Of a stretch of 64,000 nt of DNA, positions 121-49,436 are shown piece by piece. The notes below the pieces were generated by a model. It saw only the letters and a list, made by a program, of their open reading frames with translations, was not told where the DNA came from and did not search any database. Position numbers and translations under genes: made by a program. The DNA is from Phoronis australis (taxonomy: Eukaryota > Animalia > Phoronida), in assembly GCA_002633005.1 (NCBI GenBank), contig NMRA01000110.1, positions 754,079 to 818,078 of the forward strand. Direction: 5' to 3'. The stretch's first letter is position 1, and every line of letters begins with the position of its first letter.

Positions 121-1078
121 TACATGAGAGACATCTAATGTGCGCGTGAATGCACTGCCTCAACGAGACTAATGTCGGCATTATGAATGCAGGGGTTTAA
201 CGCCGTATTGAGTGACTAATGAAGATATCGCAATACATCATTTCTTCCTCTTTCGTTTGTATAACCAATCTAGGATGTCATCTGTGCCATGTCTGTATCA
301 AGAGTTGGGCAAATCACTTTTACCAATGACAAAACATCATCAATTTACCGCTTTGCTCTGTCGAACTCTTCTCCCAAAAATCCAGAAAGCTTATACTAGG
401 TGTGAATTGTGGAAAGATGAGTTTCTGTGTCATTATCTGATTGGGGCACCAAATAACTTAACAGTTCGTCTAATTCTTTTTCATTGAACGTTGGTAGTGA
501 TTTCAGGAGCTGGTGTACGAGTACCTTCTGATGCGGCGTAGAAAATAATATCAAACATTTCAATGAACGGCAAAATCTTGGCCCAAAGATGTCTGGTGAT
601 CTCGTGATAACCCAGATATCCACTTAACGCGAATATTTCCAAGAAATACAAAAAGTGTACGGATCAGTGAGGTCGTAGAAATGTTTTTTTCCACAAAACA
701 CCCCCACAATCCCGGTACTTTCCATTTTTGGCGGCCCACGTGTTCTCAGGTTGTTGGACGAGTTTGTAAGAGGATTTTCCAACGATAGCAATAGAATTTA
801 TATTTTAAAACTTAAAACTTTCTAATGATGTACTGGCTGCAGGTATAGAAACGCTCAGCAGTACCAACGGGGTTATGAATGGAAAATTCGTGTAGTATGT
901 AGTTGAAGAAAGGGCAGCTGTTTTGAAATATCTAGAGAGTAAGAATTTTCTTCCGTGAACGAACGATACCTTTTTTGGTCAAGGCCAGACGTCCTGTGGT
1001 TGCACGCTACTGAGTTCATTTTGCTGCGACTTGTTGGTGTACATCACAAGGCGTAAATGTTTTACTATGGATATTGAC
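121..1078 (-). pseudogene. NTase-TPR paralog A, 3' portion (end of the helical partner domain plus start of the variable TPR-like region)
   Basis: Nucleotide homology to copies B, C and D (e.g. GAGTTCATTTTGCTGCGACTTGTTGGTGTACATCACAAG, GTGTACGGATCAGTG, GAAGATATCGCAAT). In-frame stops are present, for example the W of LRYLHWSL is TAG, along with indels. Confidence 0.85.
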
Positions 1079-1080
1079 AC

Positions 1081-1588
1081 TGTCACGACGTGACTTTAAT
1101 GAGACAATTTAATAGAAAACATTAAGTTTAAAAGAAATAATATTTAATGAAGCTTCAACATTCAAAAAACAAACATTTACACACAATTAATAAGTTTCGT
1201 AACTGGATAGACCACTCTCCACGTTGCGTCCCAAACTAATATTACTGAGTCAAGAGTCCATCTTATTTCACACAGTCCGTGCACAGTCTTTTGTGGTCAG
1301 CATCCGACCCCATCATCTTTGTCCGCTGAATCTCCCAAGTCTTCTGTAGACACAAACGTTACACTTTCTGTGAACAGCTTCTAACACGTCTACACTGTGT
1401 CACGGCTGGCTCTCGACTGCCGCACCCAGGTCGAACATTTGAATGCGCTCAGCCAACACAGCAGTTCATTTGCATATAAATGACCCGGCAACAATCGCTG
1501 AACACTGACGCCGGCGACGTAACAGATTATGTTCACAATTATCCATACTTTACAGGCACTTATAGGTTGTAGCCGGATTGCTCTCACA
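1081..1588 (-). mobile_element. Possible solo-LTR-like insertion within copy A
   Basis: About 500 bp of unrelated sequence replaces about 200 bp of the gene. The minus strand reads TGTGAGAG...ATTAAAGTCACGTCGTGACA (TG...CA ends, ATTAAA near the 3' end). No TSD found, and the right boundary is ambiguous. Confidence 0.3.
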
Positions 1589-1650
1589 ACGTTTGTCATG
1601 TCATTGTACGCCTTACTAGACCTCGTTGCTGTCCGTTTCGTCAGTTTTCG
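1589..1650 (-). pseudogene. Second isolated fragment of NTase-TPR paralog A
   Basis: Translates to KLTKRTATRSSKAYNDMTNVV, versus KLTKRTAARSKAHHDMTNVV in copy B. Confidence 0.85.
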
Positions 1651-3585
1651 CCAAACGACCAGAATCAATACTTCTCAAGCAGAATCTCGACTCATCTGTG
1701 AAGAGCACATTTCTCCACTGTTGATGTGTTCAATCCCTGTGTTGTCTGCCACATTGCAACCTGGCTACGAACTCTGTGTGTTGCTGTGAAGGCCAACGAA
1801 CCAAAAATTCGAGACCCCTGCATCCTCAGTGCATCCTGCATCCCTACATTTTATGCTGGGAGCGCGCAAGTGGCGAAATTCTGGTTGTTCCTGTGCCCTG
1901 CCCCCCCNAAGCTCACTTGCGAGTTTCCAGTTAGTCAATGTGACGTCACCGGAAACGGGGCAAAACCCGCCATTTTGTTCTCGTTTTGCCCCGAGTGTTT
2001 GCTACACACGCGAAATCTTACTGGAGTTCTTATGGTGAATTTTACGCTTAAAACGTTAACACGATTTAAGGGATGGTCGATGGATCGTGGAATAACTATG
2101 AAGGGACGAAGACAATGTGAACTTGTTATGTTGTGCGAAGCTGTGAACGGACTGAAATTGGAACTCGACCCGGTCTAGGCCTGAATGCCGCAGGCATACA
2201 GGGGCGATAGTAGATCCCCATAAAAATTTACTCATTTCAAAATACAGCACATAAAATCAATTGAAACATGGGTATGTGCACATGGATTTATAATTAGCAC
2301 ATACCCTGACTCTGGATACAATTTAGTCCGCAAATAACTTGAACATATCCATGAAAACCTAGCGGTTCGCTCGAGTTTCTCTCAGCGGGCGCCATTTTGT
2401 GGAAGTTACGTGAAATTACGCCTGTTGACGAACAAAAAGTCCAAGGGAGACAAATCTTACAAATTTCACTTGATATTTGTCCATGCTATTGTGCAAGTGT
2501 CACGCGCCAGGTCACGCGCTTCGCTCAGTCTCGCGCTAGCTTTTGCCTCATACTCACCTCACTCAAGTTGAAATACTTTATGGTTATCGCGCGCGCGGCC
2601 AAAGTTAGCAGTAACCAAAAAGTAGAGTTGGAATTCTTCGCCAAAGTCACCTGAATTTCCATAGATATGCTTCATCGAAGATATATTTAGAAGCAGAAAG
2701 GATCATTGAAGAAAGTAAGCGCCTTAGTAGGTGATAATTTTAGGTGTAGAATGTATTTTTGACGAGGTGAAAACTTAATCATTGAGCGGATTTCACCTAC
2801 CGCCCGTTCAAAATACACGGGACGAAATTTGTACAGAACGCGATGGAACGTATTGTAGTACGAATCTGAATTTCATTTGCCTTAACAGCAATGCTTGTTT
2901 GGCATTTTTCACACTAAAAGATTAAAAACTCGAAGTAAACAACAGAATACATTCTGCTATCGTATCGGGCAAATCGCCAAACGACAAGCTTTTGCCCCAC
3001 TTCCAGTGACGTCACAGTTAAGTCTCACATAGTCTCGCGTTATTGTTACAAACTCGCAAAAGGACTAGCCACCATGAGTGCAATTTTGTGGTTTTTGCAA
3101 TTGACCTCTATGCCCTTTCTGGACATCCTGTACAACGCTGTGTGCATGGATAATAAAATATTTCCCAGCATTCGTTGTAGAAATAGATAAGCTTTGAAAT
3201 TATGTATAATTTATTCGCATTGATGGTAATTTGAAGAAAATGCCACAAATTTTCTGAAGGGGACAAAACCTCTTTTGAGAGGATTATATATGGGATAATA
3301 AAACAATACTAGCATGCAATATCTTCATCGCCGGCAAGAGCATGCGCACAAGTTAGTTCACGTTGGTCGCACACGCACTGCCAAAGAATGTCTTGGAAAT
3401 CGACGACATTTGGTGAGTCGGATCAACAAATAGTTTCGCAAAGCACGTCTCAAATTCAGATTGAAAGCTTTTAAAGCTTTATCCAGGAAGTAAGTTGTGA
3501 ACATTCATCAACAGGGGTCCCCCTTTCTGATAAGTGATAACAATTTGGTCTTATTTTGAAGAAAACAACAACGGTTTTAAGATTT

Positions 3586-3623
3586 GACATGTTTCGGTAT
3601 CATTTATTCAACACCATCCTCAG
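3586..3623 (-). ncRNA. Minimal hammerhead-ribozyme motif associated with the Penelope-like element
   Basis: The minus strand reads CTGAGGA-T-GGTGTT-gaataaat-GATACC-GAAA-CATG-TC: CUGANGA core, 6-bp stem II, GAAA, palindromic short stem III and a GUC site. It sits just downstream of the GIY-YIG ORF. Stem I pairing is poor. Confidence 0.6.
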
Positions 3624-3688: not shown

Positions 3689-4230
3689 TTACAGGGAGTG
3701 ACAATGAACTAGACCAACAATTACAACCTGTGGTGTCAGATTGGGCTTGCACCAACTGATGTGTAAAGCCTCACGAATTTTAAGCTCCTTTGTTGTTACT
3801 GCCTGGTCTAATACTGCAAAGTCATTGAAAGAGCACTGCTGATAACAATGATCGGAGCTCTGTAGGTGAATATTTACATGTGAATTTCTGTCAGAATTTA
3901 GATGTTCCTTGGTCCTGGTTTTCAAATGGCGAACAGTTTCGCCTACATAACTGGAGCCACATCCAGCACAGATAAATTTGTATGCTACCTTGGACCGTAG
4001 ACCCATAGAAATTTTGTCTTTAGGGTTAAACAAATTCGACAGTTTTAGAGACTTGAATGTTAATACAACTCTTAAGTTCACACAGTAATCATTCACCAAT
4101 TTGTTGAGTTTTCGTTGAGCAATTTTGGCGTAAAACCCAACATAGGGTATTTTAAAATACTTGTAGTTAGTTTTGTCTACAGGATGAACATCATCAGGGT
4201 TACGTTGGAGTCTTGCTTTCAGTACCCTAT
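3689..4230 (-). mobile_element. Penelope-like retroelement 3' remnant (GIY-YIG endonuclease)
   Basis: ORF 3689..4099 contains VAYKFICAGCGSSYVGETVRHLKTRTKEH...LKIREALHISWCKPNL, the PLE-type GIY-YIG signature, preceded by a FKIPYVG linker. The RT domain is missing (5' truncated). Confidence 0.85.
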
Positions 4231-4773
4231 TGACTAATTTGGTCTTACGTTTTCACTTCACCAAGTAATTATGAGCGTACGACAATCTACAAATAATTCA
4301 TAAAAATTTTCCAAGTAAATAGAAGTAAATAGGCAACTATTCTCAGCGACTTTGCTCGTTTACTCAAGTGAAATTTATCGTAATCTATTTTACCCGGGGT
4401 ATGTCACGAGCTATGTTAATAAGTATAACAAGATAAGAGTTGTCACATATTACATGTATGTCATTTCTTATGACGTAAGTAGAAAGACAAGACTTTGCAA
4501 GATGGACGTGGAAAAACACCACCGGCGCGTACATAGAAGTGTCCTTATAGGAAAAGAAAAGCTAAGGGATTAAGAAAAGTCTGAAGGGCCAAGCAGAAAA
4601 TGCATGATAAGAAAAAAAACTCCCTCCTGGAATGGAAGTTGAGAAAGAGAAAAAGGTGAGGTAATATTTTATATTTTCATTTTCAGGAATAGTTTGTAGT
4701 CTGGAGCGGAAGACTAAATTTGGACTTAAGACTTAAAAATCACTTTTCATGAAACAAACCCTGGTTCTGTGAA

Positions 4774-7306: not shown

Positions 7307-7889
7307 GGTAGCCTTGGCTCAAAGCTGTATGGGCCTACTAACAAGCTAGCTGTATTTTGACGGTAGTCTTCATACTGGTAGCTGGCACTGAGGCTAGCTA
7401 AGGACTGCCGCGGCAGTGTGACACAGGATTAACCAGCCCGTAATTTTATGCAAGTGTCTGAAACTACCTTTGAATATATACGGCATTTATGATTTGAACA
7501 TTTTACTTGTTAAAACAGCTTGCAACCGCATGCCTTTACCGTTCCCGTGGGTCTTGTCTCGATCCGCACCGGGTCCAATAGGCTGCGGTCCTGAGGCCGG
7601 CAAAATTTATTCGCTACATTTCTTCTGCAAATTCGATAAAATTTTCCGTATTTTGATTTTATTCAAATTAAGGCCACTGTCCATTATTTTATCCCCGTTT
7701 GCATGTAACAGGCACTCAGACTGACGGCGTTTTCTTAGCCTGGGTTCCTGAATGAATTGTACTTCCGGGTTCGCGGCAAGTTCAAAATGGCGGTGGTTCT
7801 TCGGGTGCGAATCGTGAGTGGCGCGTTCATTTAAACTTTTTTCGAGTACGGATCGTGTATTAGTTATGAGGTAGGTACTTCTTGGATCC

Positions 7890-8740
7890 TTATAACATTC
7901 CCTGACCACGTAATATGGTTAAAATGAACGCTTGAGACCAGGACTTTAAGTACGATTGACTAGTTGACAGCGATATATATATGTCCCTGAGTTCGTAACT
8001 GCCGGGTTTGTAAAGTAGAGCGTTGAACAAGTAATGTACCGCTAACTCGTATCTCTCCGTTTCAATGTAACATAATGCTATGCCTTGAAAAATTATGCCT
8101 TTACATTGGGATACATTAAAACACTGTTGCACCTTATCAAGAGCTGTAAAATGATTTTGCAAAGATTGATTGAACTCGCCATTTTGGAAGTAAAGGCTTG
8201 CAACTACAATGAGTTCTTTTACAACAGAATCTTGAAGTAGCCACTTAGTCATCAAATCTGATCTAAAGGCATTAAAATGTGCCGCTAAAATGCCTGGTAT
8301 GCAACCCTTTTTGGAACAAATTTCGTTTGAAAAGTCAGCGAAAATGCTTGTTCCATATGAAGGTTTTGACTTCGGAGCGGATGTGGCAGAATTTATATCA
8401 TTTAGTAGTTTTTGAGTTAAGTTCAGTATCTCCTGAGAAGACTTTAGAACACTATTAAGGTTGGGTTCATATTGGCGAATCATTCTAATCATTTGTAATG
8501 TCATGCGAATCCACTTTAAGCGTTTACTATCGGTAAGCGTAATGGAGTTGTATAGAGTATTCAGTGACCAATGAAGATATCGCAACATGACAATGTTTCT
8601 TTTGCTTAAATTTGTAGAACCAATCTCGGACATCATCTGCGCTGCTAATTCCGATTCTGCATTATTAGATGGGTAATACGGGTCTACAAGCAACAAAACA
8701 AAAACACAATACCGCACTGCTGCGTCAAAGTTTTCTAATA
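7890..8740 (-). pseudogene. Out-of-frame C-terminal TPR-like region of copy B
   Basis: The 275-aa ORF 7890..8717 aligns to the C-terminal part of copy D (LRYLHWSL; FNQSLQNHFTALD; CKGIIFQGI; RYELAVHYLFNALLY). It is offset from the upstream ORF by a frameshift at ~8738-8745. Confidence 0.8.
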
Positions 8741-10728
8741 AAAATAGTCAAGGCAACTGATGTGGTTGAAAACTATGTCAAAACGATATTCTTCTTCAAA
8801 CATTATTGTTGCTGGGAGCAAAAAACCAAATTTTAACATCAGATAGTTTTTTTGGAGCAGTTCGTCGTTTGATTTAAGGAAATTATACAGCTTTAACTCA
8901 TCATGAGATTTATAACGGATTTTGTGATTGATTGATTCAACATCCTGTCTAAGCTCTTCATAACCCAGCAGCGTGCTTACTTTCTCTATTGCCTTCAAAC
9001 ACAGTAAAGTGTACGGATCAGTGAAGTCATATGGAATTTGCTTTCCTTGATAGTAAAGGTATCCACAGAACACCCCACAACCGTGATGCTTTCTTGTTTT
9101 GGCGGCCCATGTGTTCTCAAGTTGCAGGACAAACTTGTTAAGGGCATTTTCGAACGATAGCAGTCGCAATTCTATTGAACCTTCTATGTATTGGTTGCAG
9201 GTATAGAAAGGTTCAACAGTACGAATGGGGTTATGGATCGAAAATTCGTATAGTATGTAGTTGACGAAAGGGACGATTGTACAGAAATATCTAAAGAGCA
9301 ACAGTTTGCTGTCTTGAACGAACGATACCTTTTTTGGTCTAGGCCAGACGTTCTGTGGTTTCACGCTCATGAGTTCATTTTGCTGCGACTTGTTGGTGTA
9401 CATCACAAGCCGTAAGTGTGTCACTATGGATATTGCGACTTGTAGATTGTGCCTGGATTGATCAGCAATAATTTCTTCTGTAACCATTTCATCCAAAATG
9501 TCCCACGGAGTACTGCTGTTTAGAGAGTAAACAGTTTTAAACAAACTGATTACCAGGCTGGGTAACCTGAACATCCCTTCTTTAATGTCGGCGACATCCC
9601 CGTCACCCACGAAACTCAGGTGTGGTAAATATCTTTTCACCACGTTCGTCATGTCATGGTGAGCCTTAGACCTCGCTGCTGTCCGTTTCGTCAGTTTTCC
9701 TCGATTGGACTTAAATTCTTCAATCAGTCTATCCGCCCCGTGGCTCCCGCCAATTTTGACTATTGATGTTAATATGCGATCAATATCATAACCTTCCTTC
9801 AGAGATGTATTGTATTCACAAAGCTGTGCCATACGTTGAGGTGTTTTAATTAACTCTATTCCTTTCCTCATTGGTCTATCAGGACGACCAAGCGGTGTGT
9901 GGCAGGCATGTGGCGCTGCGCTGTCGAACTGCAAACCGCGGGGAGTCACTTTGTCTTCGAACCTGTTTCCTCCAGGTTTGTCGTTGTCGTTCAGTGATTT
10001 GATTTGCATCGATTTCAAAACAGTTTCTCTTAAATTCAAAACAAATAAATGCACCATCCCCACCAAATTCCTAAAATAACCAATGTTACTTTCATCTTCA
10101 ACCAGAATGCACCACTCAATGTCAGAATACGTTGTCGTTTCACCTCTAGCCAGAGAACCTAACCCTAACACTGCAAACTGTTGAGGTGGTGGTCCTAGTA
10201 TCGATATTGACGTAGAAATCAGACCCCAGAAAAAGTTTCTCACCTCGTGATTAACGTCTTCGAACAATTGCCTTGTCTCACGAACGTATTCTTTTTCAAT
10301 GTCTATTCGCTCGTTGTGTGACAGATTTGCACTAAATTTAGCCTGAATTTCAGCCATTAGCACGTTCGCGCTGCAAGACGTCGTCCCTCTAATATTAGTC
10401 AGATTAAATTGAACTTTGGAAATGTAATTAAAAGGCGTTTTTTCGCATTTTAGTAACAGCATCTCGCAAAAGGCAACTTCATTTCTTTTTAAGGCCTCTT
10501 TGATTTTTTCAGTGGCCTTTGATCGCTTGGTTCGCAAAATAGCGGCATTGTAGAGCGCAGATGCTTTAATGAAATCGCCACGGAGCTTTGTCAACGTACC
10601 CCTCTCTGCATAAATGTCGCCCATTTTTTTCAACAGCCTACTGTCTCTTTCTAAATCATCTCGCGATCCATTTAACAGAGTCTCGGCAAGGAGTTCTTCT
10701 TCCTTCGCCAGGTCTGTCAGTCGCTTCT
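8735..10728 (-). CDS. NTase-TPR paralog B main exon: TPR-like helices + GlnD/DUF294-type nucleotidyltransferase + helical partner domain, truncated by a frameshift
   Basis: 632-aa ORF, open upstream to a CTGAC...TTTTGTAG branch point and acceptor. Motif FAVLGLGSLARGETTTYSDIEWCILV fits hG[GS]x9-13Dx[DE]. A DIKEGMFRLPSL...TPWDILDEM...LRLVMY helical domain follows. Confidence 0.85.
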
Positions 10729-11247
10729 CTACAAAACGTTGTCAGTCCATCAATAGATAACTTGCACAAAAGTTTGTTTCAAATCAAATTAAAAATTCCC
10801 AAGAAAATAATTTCACACATTTTAGTCGACGCAATGATTCCTCCAGTCCACTGACTTTTAGTCCAATTTGTACACCAACACAAAATACGTCTGCAATCTT
10901 TTCATGCGATAAACGAAAATGATTCTATCTCTGAGCAGATCATTATGGTGACCACTGTTGCGGTAAACCAACACTGTAATTTGAAATTTTCAACATTTGT
11001 TTACAAAACATCGTTCCCGTATGTTTCAAAATTCTGTAAACGCGACGTCATTCTCAATTATATACAAGTATTAGCTCTTGTTTAAGTTAATCATCACAGT
11101 GGTATCCCGACTCACACCTACGGCATTTGCCAATTTGAGTGTGAAAGTTGCTTTGGCAATGTCTTCCTGGTGTTATGCATGTCGCCCATGCGAGACATGA
11201 AACATCCATGGGGCCATCCAGAACGCCTGTGGTAGCTTCGTAGCATC

Positions 11248-11486: not shown

Positions 11487-11523
11487 TGGTGCCGAGAAAG
11501 CTTGAATTCAGTGTCGCGGCCAT
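11487..11523 (-). CDS. Predicted first coding micro-exon of NTase-TPR copy B (MAATLNSSFLGT, phase-1 donor)
   Basis: ATG plus 37 nt ending at donor GTAAAT. It joins in frame to the acceptor at 10728. The equivalent in copy D (49400-49436) differs by three synonymous changes and one non-synonymous change. Confidence 0.55.
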
Positions 11524-13252: not shown

Positions 13253-13555
13253 TTTTAACCTAATATTTAACTGTCTGTGACAAGTGTGCTCACTTACCAT
13301 GTGATATTTTTGTTTTAACCTAACATTTAACTGTCTGTGACAAGTGTGCTCACTTACCATGTGATATTTTTGTTTTAACCTAACATTTAACTGTCTGTGA
13401 CAAGTGTGCTCACTTACCATGTGATATTTTTGTTTTAACCTAACATTTAACTGTCTGTGACAAGTGTGCTCACTTACCATGGGATATTTTTGTTTTAACC
13501 TAACATTTAACTGTCTGTGACAAGTGTGCTCACTTACCATGTGATATTTTTGTTT
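13253..13555. repeat. 60-bp tandem repeat, 5 near-perfect copies
   Basis: Unit TTTTAACCTAACATTTAACTGTCTGTGACAAGTGTGCTCACTTACCATGTGATATTTTTG. A diverged monomer lies at ~13799-13875. Confidence 0.95.
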
Positions 13556-16037
13556 CAAGGTATTTTTTAACATCGGGGTACGTGCAATATACAGGGGTAA
13601 GTACACTGCTATTCAATGACGTGTCATGTTTGTAACTAAATACAAAGAATCTACTGGGAGTTAGTTAATATTTCAAATCTATTCAAAGAGAAAACCTGTC
13701 ATTCTTTGAAAATAGGTTCAAATCAAAATATAGGGGGCACGCACACTATACAGGTGTTAATATTTCGCTCAAAACAAACGTATTTGCAATAAACACCCTT
13801 TTAACCTAAAATTTTTAAGGAAGGAAACTGTCTGTGGCCTATTTTGCTCACTTAACAAGTAATATTTTAATTTCATGGTATTTGTAAACATGGGGGTACG
13901 TACACTACAAAAGGGAGTTCATCCATTACAACAATGTTTCTGCATCACATGGTAACATAATAATGTATGGCCATTTATTTTTCTTTGATGATAATAAGCA
14001 CCATGTTGCTATTTAAAAGGCAATATTTCATTTACAATCACCATTTGTGTCACTGAATTTCACTTGGGGTACGTGCACTACATTTTGTTATGCTTTTGGC
14101 CCTTTTTCAACATAGCAGAACACAGTCAATATTCAAACGTTTGGTTTGTTAAGATATTGAATAAATTGCTGTGTTGCCTACTGTAGGATAACATATTCTG
14201 GAGTTCTTTTTATTACAGAGTATGAACTTTACTTTTTAACCTTCTTTATAGTAGTTGAGGGTTAGACACACGGAATTTACAAATTTTGTAACGAGTTGAC
14301 TTTGTGTTTTAGGATGAACCCTACGATTTCACAATAATTAAGCACAACTTCATCTGAGTGGTTCTGAAAGTGTCTCAAGTTACATATCAACGGAATTGCT
14401 TACTTTATAAAACATATTTCTTTTCTACTGTTGACAGTTGAAAATTGGAATTTTTAAAATGGCCACTCGTAACGCTAAAAATGCATGAAATTCGTAGACA
14501 AAAACATGCATAAATTTCTCAAACGCTATCTGATTTTGATGAAACTTTTTTTATTCGCAAAACTGAATCACCTTTCCATATGAGATTCAGTTGACATTTG
14601 GTAAGTGACCAAAAAAAATATTTTAGCCCGAAACGCAGCCGACTGCGGAATATGGACCTTGATAAGGATTTACACGCGGTACTGCCTACAGACACAAAGT
14701 TTTACCCTACATTCTTTCATAGTGCTACGAAAAGTACTTTTCATTATAGGTGGCGGAGGGTAAGTTGTACACAAGAAATCTCTCGGTTTGTGAGGGCAGT
14801 TCTTTATTCTCGTCTGTGGTAACGGATAATTCATTGTAGGTTTGAAATAGAAATTGAATCATAAATCTTTTGACAAACCGAGGTTTGCATTGTGGCATTG
14901 TTACCCACGGGCGCCTAAAAGCCTTGCTAAGCGGCCAGGGCACATAAAAGTGATGAAAAAATAAAAGTGATGAAGATGACCAATAATTCGATAATTATTA
15001 TCATCGTTGTCTGTCAAGTTCAAGATTTTTTACGTTTGCCTGTGTCTTGACGACATTGAGCCCTACATGTATCTGTTTTAGCTCATGTTGAAAATGGCAA
15101 TATAAGCATTGAAAGTAATCTTTCGTAAATTTGAGAACATGAACTTTATCATAAAACCACTGTTTCACATGTGCTGTTGTATGTAATTTGTGGTTAATTT
15201 CCTGTTCTCTCATGGATTTTGACATTATTCTCTTGTTGATATTGTATTTTGTCTCTTCCGTTATGTCCCCGAGACTTTTTCGGCTGAGGCATTGTCGCCG
15301 GGGCAGATTGGCGGCCCAGCACCAGTACAGTGGCACCTAAGAGTGGGAAGGCGACCAGTCAGGGGAAGTGAACAGTAATTATTGGTGACTGCATGCAGAA
15401 AGGGGGGGGGGTGACCAACAGACTCGTTAGGGAAGCATGTGAAACTGTTGGTGACTGCGAAACAAGGATCAAAGAACACCGTTTCCATTCGTACCAGTCG
15501 ACAGTATGTACGCCTGTGGAGGATGGCACGGCGTTTATTTTGTACATGATCACTTCAATGTATTATCTTACTTAGATGCGGCCAGATTACTTCCCAAGCA
15601 GGTTTTTGACGGAAAACATGACTTAATACTATTTGTAATTTTGGCCATCAAAAACAATACTGAGAAGCCATTCCATCTTTTATAAAGTTTTAATAATTAG
15701 CCTCCTTTCTTGAGCTAACTCGGGAACTGACGAAACGGTCTTGCCGCCTAAGACTACCTGCTAAGACGTACATAGCGCCCGTCAGAGGGCATTACCTGAC
15801 CGCATTGCAGTAACCCGGGGAGCTTGATTTCTGAAGAGATGTATATAACCGTTAGTTTCTGAATTTGACTGCGGCTATTTGCGTTAGAAACCTAGGTAGC
15901 AAGAGGGTAAGCGCGTATTTCTGCTGTGGTTATAGTTGCAGTGGCGGATCTAGGATACCATGAGGGGGGTCCTACCTCCCCCCCTAAATCCGCCTATGAT
16001 TTGGTCCAATCAATCTCGCCTACCTTGCACGGTTGCG

Positions 16038-18144: not shown

Positions 18145-19905
18145 ATGGCGTCAAACGATCCTGTTGCCCAGCTCCGTCGAGTCCTAGAGTGCCCCGTGTG
18201 CTTTGAGCGATCGGGTGACCAGAGGGTTTTGCCATGTCTTCACTCATTTTGCAAAGACTGCTTGAACAGTCACATGACAGAACAGGGGCAAAGCGGTGAA
18301 TTTCCATGTCCGCTGTGCAAAACAAAATTTCCTGTTCCAAGAGAAGGTGCCACTGGATTCCAACATAACTATTTTCATGCGGGTATCTGTGACATTGTTT
18401 TGAATTATGACAGCATGAATAAAATGCATTGTTCAGCTCATGGAGACCGGCTTTTGGAAATGTTTTGTGATCAGTGCAAGGTGGCCATATGTTCACGCTG
18501 CTCAACTTCAAGTCATAAGCGACATGATACGAAAGATTTAGACGTTGCTGCAAAAGACGCCATTGAGGTGATGCGTGATTTGTTGAAACCTTGGCGAGAT
18601 GTTACGCAGCTCTGGGAAATATTGCGCGATAAACGACAACAAGTTGCACAAAGTTATGCCCAACAACAAAAAGCTTGTAAGAGTGAGATAAAACGTTTAT
18701 ACAGTGATTTCCTGGCAGAGATCACTCGTCAAGTCAAGGTTAATGAAGAGAAAGCTATTGCAGAGTTGGAAAAACAAGTAGATGCGGCGAGAAAACAGGC
18801 AGAAGCTGCTTGCGATGAGGCTGAACTGAACAGGGCGAAGTTTGCTAGCGTTTATGATTATGTAAATAATGTTCTTGAGTCATGTCATGACGCTGAGAAA
18901 CTGCAACAATTTAATGAGATTAAGTCTCTTCTTAAAAACTCGAATATTGATCAAATCGAGACGCGGGTTGAAAAATCAGTCTTTGAAATCCAACCTGCGA
19001 CAATTGCAGTTCCAAATGTAGCTGTGAATATTATGAAAAAAATGGAAGACGAAAATATTTCATCCAGTTTTTTTTTTGAAATGTTTGCCTCAGTTGTTTC
19101 AGTTTTCAGTAAATCACCTGTCCACCGTGTGACCCCTCAATTGACTGTTAAAAAACGTGTTCAACTTGAGCGGAGATTTAGCAGTCTGCTTGAGGGGGAG
19201 AGAGGAGGCTGTTGTCGTGGACTGGCAGTGGTTGATGGGGTGGTGGTTGTGACGGACAGTATCAACAAGAATGTCAAGGTGTTTCGTAAAAACAACGTGA
19301 CATTCAAATTAACGTTGAACACCGCCCAGCACCGACTGCAGGACCCTTTTGATGTGACATGTAATAGACTTGGTGAGATCTTCATCACTGACCTTGGTAT
19401 TCAAGGAGTTGTCAAGTATGACGCCAGAGGTCAACAGATGAAGGTCTACCCAGGTGTGTATAAACATAGGGGGTGTATTACGTGTCACACCGACCAGCTG
19501 GTAGTGGCGGATACACAGGGTGGACGGGTGTTGTACACCGACTTTGAATGTAAGGTCCGTCAACAAATAGATGCCCGCTCCCTGGGTCTGAGTGAGTTTT
19601 CACCAGACTGTATATGTGTGGATGAGAACACTGGACATGTGGTGGTGAGCCAGCAGACACATCCTCGTGTGTACGTGATTGACCCCACACAGCCGGCCGT
19701 TATACACACATTATTCAGTGATGCGCTGGGTGGGCCGTGCAGTCTGTGTGTGGATCAGTTCGGCCACATTCTCCTGGCTAACTTATTCGAGTACAGTATA
19801 CATCTGTTGACCCTTGCACTTGCACACGCGATGTCGTCAGGCCTACAGCCCTATGTCCATCAGGCCCAGGGAGGGTGTACGTACTGGAGTTGGGAGGTGA
19901 TGTGA
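18145..19905 (+). CDS. TRIM-NHL family E3 ubiquitin ligase (RING, B-box, coiled coil, NHL-type beta-propeller), single coding exon, last blade frameshifted
   Basis: C3HC4 RING (CPVC..CLHSFCKDC..CPLC), B-box (CSAH..FCDQC..CSRC..H..H), long coiled coil, and NHL repeats (LQDPFDVTCNRLGEIFITD; GPCSLCVDQFGHILLA). A splice acceptor TTTTCTGTCTGCAG lies just before the ATG at 18145. Confidence 0.9.
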   Translation: MASNDPVAQLRRVLECPVCFERSGDQRVLPCLHSFCKDCLNSHMTEQGQSGEFPCPLCKTKFPVPREGATGFQHNYFHAGICDIVLNYDSMNKMHCSAHGDRLLEMFCDQCKVAICSRCSTSSHKRHDTKDLDVAAKDAIEVMRDLLKPWRDVTQLWEILRDKRQQVAQSYAQQQKACKSEIKRLYSDFLAEITRQVKVNEEKAIAELEKQVDAARKQAEAACDEAELNRAKFASVYDYVNNVLESCHDAEKLQQFNEIKSLLKNSNIDQIETRVEKSVFEIQPATIAVPNVAVNIMKKMEDENISSSFFFEMFASVVSVFSKSPVHRVTPQLTVKKRVQLERRFSSLLEGERGGCCRGLAVVDGVVVVTDSINKNVKVFRKNNVTFKLTLNTAQHRLQDPFDVTCNRLGEIFITDLGIQGVVKYDARGQQMKVYPGVYKHRGCITCHTDQLVVADTQGGRVLYTDFECKVRQQIDARSLGLSEFSPDCICVDENTGHVVVSQQTHPRVYVIDPTQPAVIHTLFSDALGGPCSLCVDQFGHILLANLFEYSIHLLTLALAHAMSSGLQPYVHQAQGGCTYWSWEVM

Positions 19906-27097: not shown

Positions 27098-29863
27098 TTA
27101 AAAATCCCAGATATATAGCAAATTTTTAAATTCTGTAAGAATAGTTGAGTATGCCTCTGGCCAAGTGTGCCACGATAATTTTGTCATTGTATTGGCATTA
27201 TTATACGTTCGTTCGAGTTCATGATTGCCTGGATCATTAGTTAGTGCATTGAATAAGTAGTATTTCGCTAACTCATATCTCTTCGTAAAAAAGTAACTAT
27301 ACCCTATACCTTCAAAAATTAAACTTTTACATTGGGATGTCAGGAAGAGATATTTCGTGCCTGGCTGACAACCTTTTGTGGCACAAATCCTCCTTGAAAG
27401 TTTCATGAAATCGTTTCTAATTGTACTTGATCGTATAAGCTTCGGAGCCGGTAAACTGTTTTCATCATTTAGTTCATGAAGTGTTAAGTTCAGTAACTCC
27501 ACTGAGTACTTTAGAGAATCATCGAAATTTTGTTCATCATGGTAAATTTTTGCCATGACTTTTAACGTTTGTTTAAGGACAAGAAAGTCGGCTCTGTCAT
27601 TACGCTAAATGCAGGGATACAATTTATCTCGTGACCAATGAAGATATCGCAATATAACACCATTTCTTTCTCTTCCGTTTGTAGAACGAGTCTCGGTTAT
27701 CATCTGGGCTATATCAAGAGTTGGACAAACCATTTCCACCGACGACACAAGAACATCAGAATGCAACGATAATGCTTTGTCGACGTCTTCTAACAAAAAA
27801 CTAAGGAGCATAATCTGTCGGGATATTAGGGTAAGACGAATTTCTGTGTATGGAAAATCTGCTTCGGGGAACAAACATATTAATGTTAGCATCCTCATCG
27901 CTTGTAATAGTTAGTCATATTGCCTTTCACTGAACTCTGAAGGTGATTCAGGGAGCTTGCTTTTGAGTTCTTCATACCACGCATAGATACAAACATCCAT
28001 TTCACTTATTTTTACAATCTTGGGGGAAAGACATCTCGTGAGCTCGTGGTAACCCAGGCTTGGACCTACCGTGGCTATGTTCACCAAACACAGGAAAGTG
28101 TACGGATCAGTGACGTCATAGGAAATTTGCTTTTCTTGATCGTAAAGGTATCCACAGAAAACCCCACAACCCTGATGCTTTCTTGTTTTGGCGGCCCATG
28201 TGTTCTCAAGTTGCAGGACAAACTTAAGGGCATTTTCGAACGATAGCAGTCGCATCTCTATTAAACCTTCTATGTATTGGCTGCAGATATAGAAACGTAC
28301 AAACGCGGTTATGAATCGAAAATTCTTATAATATGTAGTTGATGAAAGGGACGATTGTACCGAAATATCTAAAGAGCAACAGTTTGCTTTCTTGAACGAA
28401 CGATGCCTTTTTTGGTCGAGGCCAGACGTCCTGTGGTTGCACGCTCTTGAGTTCATTTTGCTGCGACTTATGGGTGTACATCACAAGGCGTAAATGTTTT
28501 ACTATGGATATTGCAACTTCTAAGTTGTGTGCGGATTGCTCAGCAATAATTCCCTCTGTGACCATTTCATCCAAAATGTCCCACGGAGTACTGCTGTTTA
28601 GAAAATAAACAGTTTTAAGCAAACTGATTACAAGGCTGGGTAACCTGAACATCCCTTCTTTAATGTCGGAGACATCCCCGTCACCAACGAAACTCAGGTG
28701 TGGTAAATATCTTTTAACCACGTTCGTCATGCCATGGTGCGCTTTAGACCTCGCTGCTGTCCGTTTCGTCAGTTTTCGTCTATTGGACTTTAACTCTTTA
28801 ATTAAACTATTCGCCCCTTTGCTTCCACCGATTTTGACGACAGTTTTCGTCTATTGGACTTAAATTCTTCAATCAGTCTATCCGCTCCTTTTCTCCCGCC
28901 AATTTTAATTACAGATGCTAACATGCTATCAATATCATAACCTTCCTTCAGAGCTGTATTGTATTCACAGAGCTGCGCCATATATTGAGGTGTTCTGAGT
29001 TAACTCTATTCCTTTCCTCATTGGTTTATCAGGACGACCAAGCGGTGTGTGGCAGGCATGTGGCGCTGTCGAACTGGAAACCACGGGGGGTCATTACATC
29101 TTTGAACCAGTTTCCTCCAGGTTTGTCGTTGTCGTTCAGTGATTTGATTTGCATAGGTTTCAAAACAGTTTCTCTTAAATTCAAAACAAATAAATTCGCC
29201 ATTCCCACCAAATTCCTAAAATATTCAATGTTACTTTCATTTTCAACCAGAATGCACCACTCAATATCGGAATACGTTGTCGTTTCACCTCTAGCCAGAG
29301 AGCCTAACCCTAAAACTGCAAACTGTTGAGGAGGTGTTCCCAGTATCCGTATTGATGTAAAAATCAGACTCCAGAAAAAGTTTCTCACCTTGTGACTAAC
29401 GTCTTTGAAAAATTGCCTTGTCTCACGAACGTATTCTTTTTCAGTGTCTATTCGCTTGTTGTCTGACCGATTTGCATTAAATTTAGCCTGAATTTCTGCC
29501 ATTAGCACGTTCGCGCTTTGAGACGTCGTCTCTCTGATATTAGTTAGATTAAATCGAACGTTGGAAATGTCATTAAAAGGTGTTTTTTCGCATTTTAGTA
29601 ACAGTATCTCGCAAAAGGTAACTTCATTTCTTTTGATTACCACTTCATTATTTAATATTCTTTGATCGCTTGGTTCGCAAAATAGCGGCATTGTAGAGCG
29701 CAAATGCTTTAGTGAAATCGCCACGGATCTTGGTCATCGTACCCCTCTCTGCATAAATGTCACCCATTTTTCAGCAGCCTACTGTCCAAATCGTCTCTCG
29801 ATCCATTGAAGAGAGTCTCAGCAAGGAGTTCTTTTTCCATCGCCAGGTCTGTCAGCCGCTTCT
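27098..29863 (-). pseudogene. NTase-TPR paralog C, multiply frameshifted
   Basis: ORF pieces 29029..29724, 28326..28730, 27911..28456, 27605..27898 and 27098..27556 are colinear with copy D. The catalytic motif GSLARGETTTYSDIE is intact, and the same splice acceptor sits at 29864-29865. It has several indels, an internal 71-bp duplication and a C-terminal deletion. Confidence 0.92.
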
Positions 29864-33829: not shown

Positions 33830-36520
33830 ATTTAACTGGACTGAAATCAAATACTGAGCAAAAGTGACATAAATGTCACAGTCTCAACATTCACTCAGTC
33901 ACTCAACGACATACTAAATAATAATATCCCATCAACCATGAAAACAATAAAAAACAAGAACAAACCGTGGTTTAACAGTAACATTAAGTATGAAATAAAT
34001 AAAAGAAACAAACTGTACAAATCGTTCAGAAAATCAAATAACCCGTGCACGTTTAAGTGCTACAAAGAGCAGTGCAAGAGTGTGGAAAAACTAATTAAAA
34101 AGACGAAACAAGAGTACAACAATGTCGCCAAAAATTCAAAGGAATATTGGGATATAATAAACAAAATTCGAGGACAGGTAAAGCAATCTTCATAGCCCAC
34201 CATCCACTCAAAGGAATCCAACACTGAGGCGTCATCCAAAGCTGAAAAAGTAAGTCATTTTTAGAATACTTCACCGCCAAGAGTCACGTTGCGCCAACAA
34301 CAAGCTTTCCCGAATTCCCAAACAGAACATTACAACACCTCTCTGACATACAAGCCCAATCATCTGAAGTCCGAAAACTACCAGAAAATATTGACGAAAA
34401 CAAAAACGACGGTACCAATCTCATAACCAATAAAATGATCAAGCTAATAGCAAGAGAGCTTACAGTTCCTTTGACAACATTATATAACAAAATACTACAA
34501 TCTGGAAAATTTCCTTTGAACTGGAAACTTGGTGTTACGATACCAATACACAAAAAGAACTCCAAAACAGACATTGCCAACTATCGCCCCATAACTCTAC
34601 TTATACTTAACACCCTATCCAAAATTTTAGAAGAAATAATTTCTCAACACATGTTTGACCACCTCTCTTCACAAAACCTCATATATCGTCGCCAATTCGG
34701 ATTTATGAATGGTAACAGCACTGTGTCTCAACTTACATAAATTGTACACGACATCCACCTCCAGTTTGAGCAAGGGTACAACGTGAGATCCGTATTTTTA
34801 GACATTGCGTCAGCTTTTGATGTCGTTCCCCATGATCTGCTTCTACATAAATTACAATCTTACGGTTTTTCCGGAACTCTCTTCTCACTTTTAAAATCAT
34901 ATCTGGAATGTCGAACTTACAAAGTCCGAATAGAGGGTATCTTAGTCACGCTCATCAACGCCAGGTTTCGTAAATGCTGGTGTACCACAGGGTAGCGTAC
35001 TAGTCCCCTTACTCTTTTTATTGTACATCAATGATCTTCCAGACACAACAAACCCTAAAACATTCTTATATGCTGATGGCACTGCAATTTTCTACCCATT
35101 CTCAAAAGAGAATCCCCATGACTCATTACAATTGCAAACTGACCTAAACAAACTCTATGACTGGTCTTGAAAATGGATGATGAAATTTAAACCTGAAAAA
35201 GTGTTGATCTTACATTTTCTAAGTCTGATAATACTCAATTTCAAACAAATCCAATGCTGGAATTATCACTCATTGGGGAAGTTATTCCCAATAAGTTCAA
35301 ACACAAACACCTTGGATTGCTACTAGACCACAAGCTTACATTTACTCCTCACTGTCGTGAACTCGTTCACAAAGTACAAAAATTAATCAATCCAATTAGA
35401 ATTGTTGCTCGTCACCTCAACTCCATGCATCTTGAAACTCTGTTCAAGTCTTTTTTTCTTCCACATCTAGATTACTGTGACATTATCTACCAATCGGCAA
35501 ACGCTGGCATACTTCAATTATATAGAAAGACTACAATACCAAGCAGTTTTAGCCATAACAGGAGCATACAAAGGATCCAACACAATCAAGGTTCTAAACA
35601 GTCTCAACTGGAGCAAACTAGCAACCCGTCGTAAACTCCACTTGTCCATGTATGCATTCAAAATCTTAACCAACAAAAACAATTACTCATACAGAATCCT
35701 CTTTGACTCCTGCAAAAAACCTAACAAGAGACCAGGACTGCGGCAAAGTAATATGCACACCATTCCATCTTCCCTCAGCCAGGCCTTTAGGAAATCTACC
35801 ATATTAACTTGTATTGACAATTGGAATTCCTTACCATCCAAAATAAAAGAAAGCACTTCAATCGTCACTCTAAAAAATAACTTTGCCAGTCCCATTGACA
35901 TCGTTCCAACTTCCTCGCATCCACGAAATAATCCTATACAGATCAAGATGCGGCCTATTCCTAAACAACGAGAAATTTAGACATAATTTTAATAATATTT
36001 CGCCTCTGTGTTGCTGTGTAGATGCGCAGACAAATGCTCACGTTTTCTTTGCTTGTGAGGTATGCAAGGAGCAGAGGGTACAGTTTTTCCAGACACTCGA
36101 ACAATACCCCAATATTTATAAAAAATATTCTGAAATTCCTCAAGTGTACAACAAAATTAATTTTTTTCTGTATGGAAATCAAGAACTCAACCCAAATGAA
36201 AATAAGGTTTTATTCGTAATAGTATCAAAATTTCTTTATAATATTAAATCTCTTTGTGTGAGTGGATAGAATTGTACAAATGTATATGAAAATGATTTAT
36301 TTACTTTCGTAATCATATGTCATTGTAATCTTAACAGTTTTTTTAATTTATATATTTGTGTAAAATAATTGTATACAGATTTCTTTTTTATGTATTTGTG
36401 CAAAATAGTTATATATAGATTTCTTTGTACTTTTGTAACCCAGATATAATGCCTCTTGGCGCTTTCTGGGTTAGTGTATATTTATTGTATCGAAGATTTC
36501 GTAATAAACTTTATAAAAAA
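33830..36520 (+). mobile_element. 5'-truncated LINE (CR1/L2-like group) with broken RT ORF
   Basis: [55 protein letters not shown], and a C-terminal C-x-C..H..C motif. A-rich end at ~36515. Confidence 0.92.
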
Positions 36521-39862: not shown

Positions 39863-39876
39863 TGATTGATTGATTA

Positions 39877-45546: not shown

Positions 45547-48500
45547 TTATTGTACTGAATAAGTCAAGTCAATTTCGAAATCGCATATGATGAAAGTGAA
45601 TCTGTATCTATGAACAATGAGTGATACGAGGTAAAAAATGGCGAAGATGTTGAAAACAGAGATCAAGATTGCAAATCGCGCCAAATAAGTCATGTAGCAG
45701 TAACAACGTTTCCTACAAAGATACATGACGGACACTGCGATGGTTATAACAGAACACAGAAGCATAGACAAACACACTGCGGTAAGCTCAACACTATACC
45801 TAAGATTGTCGATTTCTTCTCCTTTGTGTCGGACAAACTTTTTGATCATAGAAAATGTAGTAGATAAATAAATATATCTTTGTCCGAGTTCAGAATTTTC
45901 GGGTTCGTAAATTAGCGCATTAAACATGTAGTGTAACGCTAAATCATATCTCTTCGTAATAATGTAAGATGATGTTATGCCACTAAAAATTACTTTTTTA
46001 CACTCAGATATATTTAAACAGTATTGCACCATATCAAGAGCTATGAAAAAATATTGCAAGGACAGATTGAACTTGCCTGTGACGTAGTCGGCATATGCAA
46101 CGCGGATGTATTTTGTCACAACGCTGTTTTCAAGTGAAAGTTTCTTCTCCAGTTCTGAACCAAACTCTTGGAACTGTGTCGCTATGATGTCTGCTTGACA
46201 ATCCTTTGCAGCACTGATGAACTTTGAAAGTTTTATAGAATAGTCTATTGTATTCGAGCGTATTAATTTCCTAGCGGACATACTGTTTTTGTCGTTTAGT
46301 TTATTAAGTGTTAATTTAATTGACTTCAGTAAATACATTCGAGCAGCATCGTAATTCCTTTCTCTTGAGTGAATCAGGTGGATGATATCTAATGTAATCC
46401 GAACGAGATGGACACTATCATAATCATTACCCAGAATGCACGGGTATAATGTATCAAGTGACCAATGAAGATATCTCAATATAGTAATGTTTCTTCCTCT
46501 TCCTTTTGTAAAACCGATCTCATACAGCATCTGTGTTAGGTCTGTACCAAGAGTTGGGCAAATCGCTTGTAACAATGGCAAAAGAATATCAAAATGCCGC
46601 GCTGCTTTCTCGAAGTCATTGCTATGATACATGTAGTTAAGGAGCGTGTACTGAGCGTCAATTACGGCACCAACAGGTGTTTTCTCACCAGTTGGTCTGG
46701 GGAACAAATAACCTAACATTCTCGTTTCTTGTAACAGTTGCCGATAATCTCTTTCCCTAAACGTTGATCGCGATTCAAGGAACTGGTATCCGTATACCAG
46801 ATGTTGTGTATTGAAAACATTCAACATTTCTTTTATTTGCAGAACCCTCGACGAAAGATCCTTAAAAAGCTCCAGGTAACCCAGAGATCTACTTGCCTCG
46901 CACAAGTTCACCAAACACGACATAGTGTACGGATCAGTGGCGTCATAGAAAATTTGTTTTCCTTTGTAGTAAAAGCTTCCACAGAACACCCCACACTCCT
47001 GCTTTAAAGTTTTGGCGGCCCATGTGTTTTCTAGATGTCGGACTAGCTTGTTAAGAGCATTTTTGAATGACAGTGATCGTATTTCTATTAAACCTTCTAT
47101 GTATTGGTTGCAGGTATAGAAACGCTCAAAAGTACAAACGGGACTATAAATAGAAAATTCGTGCAGTATGCAGTTGACGAAAGGGACGACTGTACAGAAA
47201 TATCTAAAGAGCAGCAATTTGCTTTCTTGAACGGACGACACCTTTTCTGGTCGAGGCCAGATGTCCTGTGATTTCACGATCATGAGTTCATTTTGCTGCG
47301 ACATGTTGGTGTACATTACAAGCCGTAAGTGTGTTACTATGGATATTGCGACTCTTAGATTATGTCCGGATTGTTCTGCCATAATTCTCTCTATGACCAT
47401 TTCATCCAAAATTTCCCACGGAGTATTGCTATTTAGAGAGTAAACGGTTTTAAACAAATTGATTACGAGGCTGGGTAACCTGTACATCCCTTGTTTAATG
47501 TCGAAGACATCCCCATCACCAACGAAACACAGGTGTGGTAAATATCTTTTCACCACCTTCGTCATGTCATGGTGAGCCTTAGACCTCGCTGCTTTCAGTT
47601 TCGTTTGTTTTCGTCTGTTGGATTTAAATTCTTCAATCAGTCTATCCGCCCCGTGGCTCCCGCCAATTTTGACTATTGATGTTAATATGCGATCAATATC
47701 ATAACCTTCCTTCAGAGATGTATTATATTCACAAAGTTGTGCCATACGTTGAGGTGTTCTAATTAACTCGATTCCTTTCCTCATTGGTCTATCAGGACGA
47801 CCAAGCGGTGTGTGGCAGGCATGTGGCGCTGTGCTATCGAACTGGAAACCGCGGGGAGTTACTGTATCTTTGAACCAGTCTCCTCCGGGTTTGTCGTTGT
47901 CGTTCAATGATTTGATTTGCATCGATTTCAAAATAGTTTCTCTTAAATTCAAAACAAATAAATGAACCATTCCCACTAAATTCCTAAAATATTCAATGTT
48001 GTTTTCATCTTCAACCAGTATGCACCACTCAATGTCGGAATACGTTGTCGTTTCACCTCTAGCCAGAGAACCTAACCCTAAAACTGCAAACTGTTGAGGA
48101 GGTGTTCCCAGTATCCTTATTGATGTAAAAATCAAACTCCAGAAAAAGGTTCTCACCTTTTGACTAACGTCTTCGAACAATTGCCTTGTCTCACGAACGT
48201 ATTCTTTTTCAATGTCTATTCGCTCGTTGTCTGACAGATTTGCACTAAATTTAGCCTGAATTTCATGCATCAACACGTTCGCGCTGCGAGACGTCGTCTC
48301 TCTAATATTAGTTAGATGATATCGAACTTTGGAAATGTAATTTAAAGGTGTTTTTTCACATTTTAGAAACAGCATCTCGCAAAAGGCAACTTCATTTCTT
48401 TTTACGACCTCTTTGATTTTTTCAGTGGCCTTTGATCGCTTGGTTCGCAAAATAGCGGCATTGTAGAGCGCAGATGCTTTAATGAAATCGCCACGGAGCT

Positions 48501-48641
48501 TTGTCAACGTACCCCTCTCTGCATAAATATCGCCCATTTTTTTCAACAGCCAACTGTCTCTTTCCAAATCATCTCTCGATCCATTTAACAGAGTCTCGGC
48601 AAGGAGTTCTTCTTTCTTCGCCAGGGCTGTCAGTCGCTTCT
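45547..48641 (-). CDS. NTase-TPR paralog D main exon (intact): TPR-like N-terminus, GlnD/DUF294-type nucleotidyltransferase, helical partner domain, TPR-like C-terminal region, two C-terminal hydrophobic helices
   Basis: Uninterrupted 1006-aa ORF, open to the acceptor at 48642-48643. Motif GLGSLARGETTTYSDIE and downstream GFQFD. Hydrophobic segments LTAVCLSMLLCSVITIAVSVMYL and FAILISVFNIFAIFYLVSLIV. About 1043 aa with the predicted exon 1. Confidence 0.92.
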
Positions 48642-49160
48642 CTACAAAATGTTGTCAGTCCATCAATAGATAGCTTGCACAAAAGTTTGTTTCAAATCAA
48701 ATTAAAAATTCCCAAGAAAATAATTTCACACCTTTTAGTCGACGCAATGATTCCTCTAGTCCACTGACTTTTAATCCAATTTGTACACCAACACAAAATA
48801 CGTCTGCAATCTTTTCATGCGATAAAAGAAAATAATTCTATCTCTGAGCAGATTAGTATGGTGACCATTATTGCTGTAAATCAACACAGTAATTTTAAAT
48901 TTTCAACATTTGTTTACAAAACACGGTGCCCGTATGTTTCAAAATTCTCTATGCACGACGTCATTCTCAATCATATACAATTATTCGCTCTTGTTTAAGT
49001 TAATCATCACAGTGGTATCCCGACTCACAACTACGGCATTTGCCAATTTGAGTGTGAAAGTTGCTTTGGCAATGCCTTCCTGGTGTTATGCATGTCGCCC
49101 ATGCGAGATATGAAACATCCATGGGGCCATCCGGAACGCCTGTGGTAGCTTCGCAGCATC

Positions 49161-49233
49161 CTGGATGGTTCCGCACGTGCCTAGCCAGCACTCGTGCGGG
49201 CTATCACCTAGCGGCATGCAAGGAACCAGCGAG
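49161..49233. mobile_element. 73-bp mini-MITE at the same position as 11248-11320 in the intron of copy D
   Basis: Same sequence and flanks as in copy B. Confidence 0.65.
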
Positions 49234-49399
49234 CTTAGCATCATCCCTCATCTGAAGTATCACAGGTATTTTTGTAGTCTCAAATTTCTGTGCATGTGCG
49301 AATTTCACCCATGCGGTAAATAATGAGACGGACAAATAGGAGACTAATGGGCCGGATGACTGAAATTCGCGCGTAGGCTAGGTTTCAGATGGTACTTAC

Positions 49400-49436
49400 T
49401 GGTGTCGAGAAAGCTGGAATTTAGTGTCGCAGCCAT
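49400..49436 (-). CDS. Predicted first coding micro-exon of copy D (MAATLNSSFLDT, phase-1 donor GTAAGT)
   Basis: Consensus donor, in-frame join A|AG to the main exon, and conservation with 11487-11523. Confidence 0.6.

Follow-up and report, generated by a model that had tools for sequence, protein, structure and literature searches.

What would a small family of nucleotidyltransferase (NTase) genes of bacterial type do in an animal genome? The question is raised by a 64,000-nucleotide stretch of the phoronid Phoronis australis (contig NMRA01000110.1, positions 754,079 to 818,078; the whole stretch is called the window here), in which a sequence-only reading had proposed an array of four paralogous genes, copies A to D, for a TPR-gated enzyme that either modifies proteins or makes a signalling nucleotide. 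We propose that the family encodes a Mg2+-dependent protein AMPylase of the DrrA/GlnE type, whose target would be selected by its tail and whose role would lie in defence or conflict. To this whole chain of statements we give a probability of roughly 0.42. Its parts differ in strength. An active NTase is highly probable. A protein substrate is favoured with some confidence, because the two nearest folds are those of DrrA and GlnE. Given a protein substrate, a defence or conflict role with recognition by the tail would be fairly probable.

The enzyme module carries the proposal. AlphaFold2, run on residues 1-520 of copy D with a 98-row alignment (residue numbers are counted from the copy D open frame at 48654), gave a model with a predicted local distance difference test (pLDDT) score of 91.5 and a predicted template modelling score (pTM) of 0.91. 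In this model TPR-like helices (1-100) are followed by long helices, an NTase core (~140-335) and a HEPN-like helical bundle (352-503). Foldseek, searching 350,542 PDB chains, found four matches at E<=0.001: DrrA 6yx5 (1.4e-8) and three GS-ATase/GlnE chains. VIA-align, searching 48,161 chains, placed DrrA at the top (Z 25.3, root-mean-square deviation 4.2, 321 of 339 residues aligned, 12% identity), followed by GlnE (Z 18.5 and 18.4) and two DrrA fragments (12.1 and 10.8), with all others at 9.1 or below; it also matched the bundle to the HEPN-like domains of 3l0i, 8xdj and 1ylm. A search of BFVD gave no match at E<=0.001. The claim that this is a pol-beta NTase with a helical partner is thus borne out by all three programs, and we predict a pol-beta NTase fold with a GlnE-type partner. 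The enzyme had also been held to differ from cGAS/Mab21, OAS and the PAP/TUTases; none of cGAS, OAS or PAP/TUTase is among the listed Foldseek and VIA-align matches, although such a listing does not exclude them. Among the matches listed, the C-terminal bundle of the model pairs with HEPN-like domains, where cGAS/Mab21, OAS and CD-NTases carry a Mab21/OAS1-C lobe.

Sequence profiles are consistent with this placement. Pfam hits residues 156-227 of copy D with DUF294 (E 2e-5, 25 bits, above the cut-off of 21), and finds no F-box in D or B. The NCBIfam model for GlnD scored 11.8 bits against a cut-off of 799, and no GlnE model was hit at E<=0.1 in the same scan. The suggested GlnD/GlnE/DUF294 type therefore stands for DUF294 and for the GlnE fold; the closest solved structure is that of the Legionella effector DrrA/SidM, not GlnD.

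Members of the pol-beta superfamily share the motifs hG[GS] and [DE]h[DE]h, with a third carboxylate in an h[DE]h on an adjacent strand (PMC2794190; papers given by PMC number are cited for partial texts). Copies B, C and D have the first two as LGS (194-196) and SDIEW (206-210). The 17-residue motif GLGSLARGETTTYSDIE, described at the outset as invariant in these copies, does occur without any change in B (at 10115-10165), in C (at 29260-29310) and in D (at 48028-48078); copy A lacks it. To gauge conservation in the wider family we used 187 domains from 174 of 200 proteins, the other 26 having been excluded for profile coverage below 75%. Core residues are nearly invariant: G195 is found in 186 domains, S196 in 182, S206 in 187, D207 in 182 (with four more E), E209 in 183 (with three more D) and D273 in 185, so that the three positions of the triad D207/E209/D273 hold an acidic residue in 186, 186 and 185 domains. 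D273 is the candidate third metal ligand; the F-D273 pair is invariant in all 98 alignment rows and is located at a short strand of the model. The bundle has its own conserved residues, K387 (185 domains), R392 (180) and R444 (182). HEPN RNase activity can be rejected because the histidine motif is missing: the residue after R444 to be compared is Y448, and just 17 of the 187 domains have R-x4-6-H. The GlnE/DrrA group likewise combines an NTase with a HEPN-like bundle that lacks the RNase motif (PMC3710099).

These residues suggest a mechanism. D207, E209 and D273 would hold Mg2+, the NTP would be bound with the help of K387, R392 and R444, and the nucleoside monophosphate (NMP), likely AMP from ATP, would be moved to a protein hydroxyl, that of a tyrosine as in DrrA and GS-ATase. 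That the nearest solved structure is DrrA/SidM rather than GlnD favours protein AMPylation over a signalling nucleotide; DrrA and GlnE add or remove AMP on proteins (PMC7815794, PMC12409994). An analogue of the cGAS-like receptors, making a cyclic or oligo-nucleotide when its tail binds a ligand, would have precedents in the adenylate cyclases and OAS of the superfamily (PMC2794190) and in expanded oyster proteins in which Mab21/cGAS-like domains are followed by TPRs (PMC8195603), a pattern like that of the array. We nevertheless regard such a synthase as improbable, since the best structural matches, well ahead of the rest, are protein NMP transferases, and since GlnE and DrrA share the HEPN-like type of partner domain. 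Still harder to credit is an enzyme like ANT(4') or LinB that inactivates small molecules by adenylating microbial toxins or antibiotics. ANT(4') does appear in the VIA-align list (Z 7.7), kanamycin NTase in the Foldseek results (E 0.11) and ANT(4')-II in NCBIfam (E 0.002, 17.6 bits against a cut-off of 350), but these matches are far weaker than those to DrrA and GlnE, and long repeat tails and F-box/OTU fusions suggest protein partners.

Evidence on target choice comes from divergence within the array. Identity between copies B and D falls along the protein, from 90-91% (residues 1-340) to 82% (341-500), 71% (501-580) and 40% (581-940); their introns are 94% identical. The ratio of nonsynonymous to synonymous substitution rates (dN/dS) is 0.33 over residues 151-500 (95% confidence interval, CI, 0.22-0.52; dS 0.20), showing that the enzyme part is under purifying selection, and 0.82 (0.60-1.11) over residues 581-940, where dS is 0.67. 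C against D gives a like gradient, 0.22-0.35 against 0.74. Which copy is the odd one out shifts along the gene (chi2 62.9, 14 degrees of freedom, p 4e-8; 8 of 10 bins were used, two with fewer than 150 columns being dropped), which fits exchange between copies. From the identity gradient and the shifting odd copy together, it follows that the 5' halves are being homogenised, or were duplicated after the tails had diverged. The idea of birth-and-death expansion gains from the mix of decayed and intact copies and from this divergence pattern, and a tandem birth-and-death family is supported. The gradient resembles that of receptor arrays, an established pattern in which the effector stays constant and the binding part varies. 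Because of the gradient, and of the precedent of FICD, whose TPRs set specificity according to the title of PMC8065156, the fast-diverging tail likely chooses the target protein.

The tail might instead be the trigger. A conserved enzyme with a variable tail would also fit a fixed substrate, the tail sensing a microbial ligand and freeing the enzyme to AMPylate one host protein, such as a small GTPase, and so to halt trafficking or kill the cell. Death and Roc-COR domains occur as fusions in some relatives, and DrrA itself is allosterically switched on (PMC7815794). We judge this version unlikely; copy B is without most of its tail, yet there are B-like transcripts (~20 sense reads), which is awkward if the tail-less enzyme were constitutively toxic.

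We return to the AMPylase with a tail-selected target. Its role is probably defence against microbes, because of the expansion, the decay, the domain partners and the bacterial relatives, of which the last two emerge from a wider search. A phmmer search of 1.84 billion cluster representatives with residues 1-520 of copy D gave 1,534 matches at E<=1e-3, 1,056 at 1e-10 and 319 at 1e-30; weak matches may cover the N-terminal helices only. Named relatives include many divergent Branchiostoma proteins, Ptychodera flava and Styela clava. Among 30 matches that we looked up, 11 were named: five from Owenia fusiformis, two from B. belcheri, two from Ca. Jidaibacter acanthamoebae, one from Holosporaceae and one without an organism. 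No vertebrate, arthropod or nematode name was among the named matches, most matches carrying no name. All of the named bacterial relatives belong to intracellular groups. Databases label the amphioxus relatives 'Protein-PII uridylyltransferase N-terminal domain-containing'.

A single plasmid out of 72,556 matched, that of Neochlamydia sp. S13, in 11 places (E 3e-35, with 30% identity along 88% of the enzyme region). Two of these places are tandem genes (L005 433-10194) with F-box-like, DUF294 and TPR parts; both match the core profile at E 1e-89, are annotated solely as TPR proteins, and one is above the SidM_N cut-off (31.9 bits). A GTDB scan with a bacterial-looking relative gave four matches to the TPR region, in Methanothrix-type genomes, and none to the enzyme, and is uninformative. 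The family is thus present beyond the Phoronis genome, in amphioxus, acorn worm, ascidian and the annelid Owenia. The NEX2 proteins of Neochlamydia are its homologues.

We chose 16 long relatives for closer study. All 16 have canonical TPR arrays at the position of the tail, and four have extra domains of conflict type: Roc-COR-Death, Roc-COR with GT4-conflict, OTU, and F-box. The OTU domain stands ahead of the enzyme module in an Owenia fusiformis protein (P0044), and an OTU fusion has been reported for ten NEX2 members of Neochlamydia (PMC4209131). Some other predicted chains, including named amphioxus proteins (P0022-P0026, P0189-P0192), have at least two enzyme modules each; some of these may be fused gene models.

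For the history of the family we built a tree (LG+G4) from 25 named rows, 17 of them animal and 8 bacterial, with unnamed rows and one duplicate Owenia domain excluded. In it the bacteria fall on one side of a branch with support 86/89, not starred. Even the nearest named row is ~2 changes per site away from the window copies, and their joining with Styela is to be taken as a long-branch warning. Because the nearest named relative is so distant, we reject the idea that the genes came recently from a symbiont. A single ancient exchange, in either direction, may have taken place between animals and intracellular bacteria; the trees neither demonstrate nor refute it. A quick tree of 187 rows has an unresolved base, and within it are lineage-specific clusters in amphioxus, in Owenia and in a 40-row clade holding Styela.

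These clusters bear on an objection to the defence role, namely that the protein is a modifying enzyme of non-immune function (development, stress), or that the family is simply decaying, its copies having come from segmental duplication without adaptive meaning. The array does lie within segmental duplicates (88-94%), three of its four copies are damaged, expression is very low and positive selection was not detected. This is again quite unlikely in our estimate: the lineage-specific clusters are separate, and purifying selection (CI below 1) with a threefold contrast in dS inside one exon is unlike simple decay.

Several observations weigh against the AMPylase proposal, or parts of it. First, activity, substrate and any induction are hypothetical, and the same fold serves aminoglycoside NTases and adenylate cyclases too. 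Second, the resemblance to DrrA is weak in sequence (12% identity, E 0.03-0.11): Pfam SidM_N hits residues 156-227 of D at E 3e-4 with 20.6 bits, under its cut-off of 27, the DrrA GEF and P4M domains have no Pfam match in D at E<=1, and only one of the three allosteric Rab-site residues of DrrA (R70, Q71, K74) is matched in the pairwise alignment, in which the GS-x(10)-D-x-D/E motif does line up. Rab1 is therefore not implied as the substrate. Third, the tail gives no sign of positive selection, its dN/dS interval including 1 and not lying above it; at 40% identity, noise in the alignment raises the ratio, and the greater part of the B tail is behind a frameshift, where it may be drifting. Fourth, in the window copies the tail is only weakly recognisable as TPR. 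Pfam finds no TPR in D and one sub-threshold TPR_1 in copy B; among 300 shuffles, 27 reached the score of D on a custom repeat profile and 9 that of B; hhalign gave 31.5% probability over 67 columns; and a single-sequence model of the tail is nearly all helical with a pLDDT of 39. We describe the tail as a degenerate solenoid. Of the TPR-like helices in the sequence-only reading, then, the relatives give clear examples and the window copies weak ones, just as the Pfam check suggested for copy D returned the expected DUF294 and no TPR. Finally, three of the four copies are damaged, and expression is very low and known from one study, with some reads differing from D.

The RNA data comprise ~18-19% of the reads of each of three runs, all from that study. 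The coding bins of D have ~27 reads, all sense, and those of B have ~20 sense and 2 antisense reads, which shows that D, or paralogs close to it, are transcribed at a low level from the sense strand; the reads that differ from the window may come from paralogs. Library direction was fixed by a TRIM gene on the plus strand, which shows the opposite mate orientation and has ~133, 67 and 1,528 sense reads in the three runs. This gene (RING, B-box, coiled coil and NHL-like repeats; 18145-19902) is one long open frame between B and C. Its reads are several percent divergent from the window sequence and its DNA depth is raised, so it probably belongs to another multi-copy family.

With copy D as query, tblastn finds four loci in the window, all on the minus strand, in agreement with the four same-orientation paralogs first described. 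Coordinates are collected in Table 1.

Table 1. Features of the NTase array in the window (residues are those of copy D)
Feature	Position	Strand	Basis or remark
Copy D, tblastn locus	45550-48654	-	1035 open codons
Copy B, tblastn locus	7938-10741	-
Copy C, tblastn locus	27203-29876	-
Copy A, tblastn locus	144-1095	-	extra weak piece 1583-1650, E 0.05
Copy D, putative first coding exon (MAATLNSSFLDT + 1 nt), GT donor	49400..49436	-	copy B counterpart 87% identical
Copy D, long second exon, open to TAA	45547..48641	-
D residues 1-100, N-terminal TPR-like helical hairpins, conserved in family	48355..48654	-	model helices; TPR-like matches Z 7-9; alignment
D residues 140-335, predicted pol-beta NTase core	47650..48237	-	Pfam, model, fold searches, family conservation
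G195-S196, D207, E209	48028-48078	-
D273	47836-47838	-
D residues 352-503, HEPN-like helical partner domain with conserved K387, R392, R444	47146..47601	-	3l0i Z 12.1, 8xdj Z 8.4
D residues 580-940, fast-diverging helical tail, degenerate TPR solenoid (weak)	45835..46917	-	position of TPR arrays in relatives
D residues 959-1014, two hydrophobic 19-mers, possible membrane anchor	45613..45780	-	D only
Copy B, putative first coding exon	11487..11523	-
Copy B, second exon to premature TAG, complete enzyme module, truncated tail	8735..10728	-
Copy B, remaining tail, other frame	7893..8747	-	one TPR_1 match, E 7e-5, under Pfam cut-off
Copy C, pseudogene with several frameshifts, intact motif	27101..29863	-
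Copy A, decayed 3' fragment without catalytic core	121..1650	-	firm match 144-1095

The copies had been read as one intact, one frameshifted and two dead. D is whole, and C and A are dead, A having three and five stops in its two tblastn pieces. B is frameshifted as described, by a single frame change near 8740 followed by a stop at 8737-8735, and its ~676 amino acids (aa) include the whole enzyme module; since this module is still encoded, B need not be dead. An Illumina DNA contig (run X2) across 8038-9209 differs from the window in 39 letters and has no indel at the frameshift site, and we therefore reject an assembly error as an unlikely source of the frameshift.

We infer a first coding exon of 37 nt in D and B, with its ATG at 49436 and 11523, because it is conserved between the two copies; in both, its GT donor is in phase with the AG acceptor of the long exon (at 48642 in D), and the spliced D protein would have ~1043 aa. 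Copy C has the acceptor, and a search for an exon-1 match in it found none; among the RNA reads none was found to span the exon 1/exon 2 junction. At the other end of the protein, the two hydrophobic 19-residue stretches of D (Kyte-Doolittle 2.45 and 2.65) flank a Cys/basic loop, and the ends of B and C differ. None of 174 collected proteins of at least 600 aa has such a segment in its final 120 residues. The D end may have arisen by read-through into T-rich DNA, or it may anchor the protein in a membrane and have been gained recently.

The window is eukaryotic DNA, with 38.7% GC, remnants of long interspersed nuclear elements (LINEs) and the TRIM gene. We rejected bacterial contamination in view of the GT-AG intron in two copies, the neighbouring TRIM gene, the LINE remnants and a segmental duplication. 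The last lies upstream of C and D, where 30722-39397 matches 51934-64000 at 88-94% identity, each duplicate holding a decayed LINE-type reverse transcriptase (33845-36266 and 57678-60113; RVT_1 E 2e-4). The repeat unit extends past the right end of the window, so that there may be another copy outside it. In summed depth of DNA contigs the enzyme part exceeds the tail, with 89-170 against 21-31 in B and 22-30 against 5-12 in D, which hints at more near-identical 5' parts elsewhere, such depth not being a copy number. The window also has a tandem repeat with a 60-bp unit (13253-13571, about five copies, 94-96% identity) and two minus-strand open frames at 3692-4252 and 7610-7918, the second directly behind the copy B tail. 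We take both frames to resemble GIY-YIG endonuclease remnants of Penelope-type elements; a Pfam scan of the first found nothing.

A literature search that covered few subscription journals found no description of the animal family. Animal members are not described in the partial texts of PMC3710099, PMC8195603, PMC3482391, PMC13350694, PMC2794190, PMC12409994 and PMC12894286, and supplements of the Aravind group could list these proteins. The fold and the bacterial NEX2 architecture are known already, while the DrrA link and the animal expansions appear to be undescribed. The three findings named as speaking against the sequence-only reading are all absent: the model has a pol-beta fold, no functional characterisation of the family came to light, and the gene did not prove to be single-copy, conserved and constitutively expressed in relatives.

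Among known systems, GlnE (GS-ATase) and GlnD (the PII uridylyltransferase) share with the array protein the fold (GlnE, Z 18.4-18.5) and the DUF294 family. The array protein differs in having no nitrogen-regulation context, and its GlnD score is far under the cut-off; Pfam found no HD, ACT, CBS or second ATase domain in it. The AMP-transferase (ATase) domain of Legionella DrrA/SidM (PDB 6yx5) is the best fold match over nearly the whole length, with an NTase core followed by a HEPN-like bundle. DrrA uses D110, D112 and D150, and AMPylates Rab1 at Y77 once Rab1 has activated it allosterically (PMC7815794). Its GEF and P4M domains are unmatched in the array protein, its Rab-site residues mostly not kept, and the array gene stands apart from it by its animal genome, its intron, its multiple copies and its variable tail.

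NEX2 of Neochlamydia (F-box, optional OTU, DUF294, TPR) has a homologous DUF294 module and the same birth-and-death expansion. It was described in 2014 with 50 members, a dN/dS of 0.29 and a type III secretion signal in the members tested; the partial text of that account contains no enzymatic test and no mention of animal relatives (PMC4209131). NEX2 differs in being bacterial, in its type III signal (in tested members), in its F-box and in its long canonical TPR arrays. If our proposal is true, it would supply a function for NEX2-type proteins of amoeba symbionts, and the animal family would represent both a new class of AMPylation writer and a new kind of invertebrate immune effector.

FICD, a known animal enzyme, is likewise an AMPylase coupled to TPRs and a membrane segment (PMC12409994). 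FICD/HYPE and SelO differ in their Fic and pseudokinase folds, and FICD is single-copy, whereas the array family is of pol-beta type and expanded. In the partial texts of two reviews, FICD and SelO alone are named as animal AMPylases and the GS-ATase/SidM type is treated as bacterial (PMC12409994, PMC12894286); one of the two describes host use of, or defence against, AMPylation as unexplored. We tentatively suggest that beside FICD and SelO there may be a third animal AMPylase class: DrrA-like, anciently shared with intracellular bacteria, kept in several marine invertebrate lineages, and expanded in them as an immune arsenal whose swappable helical tails direct the enzyme to targets that change.

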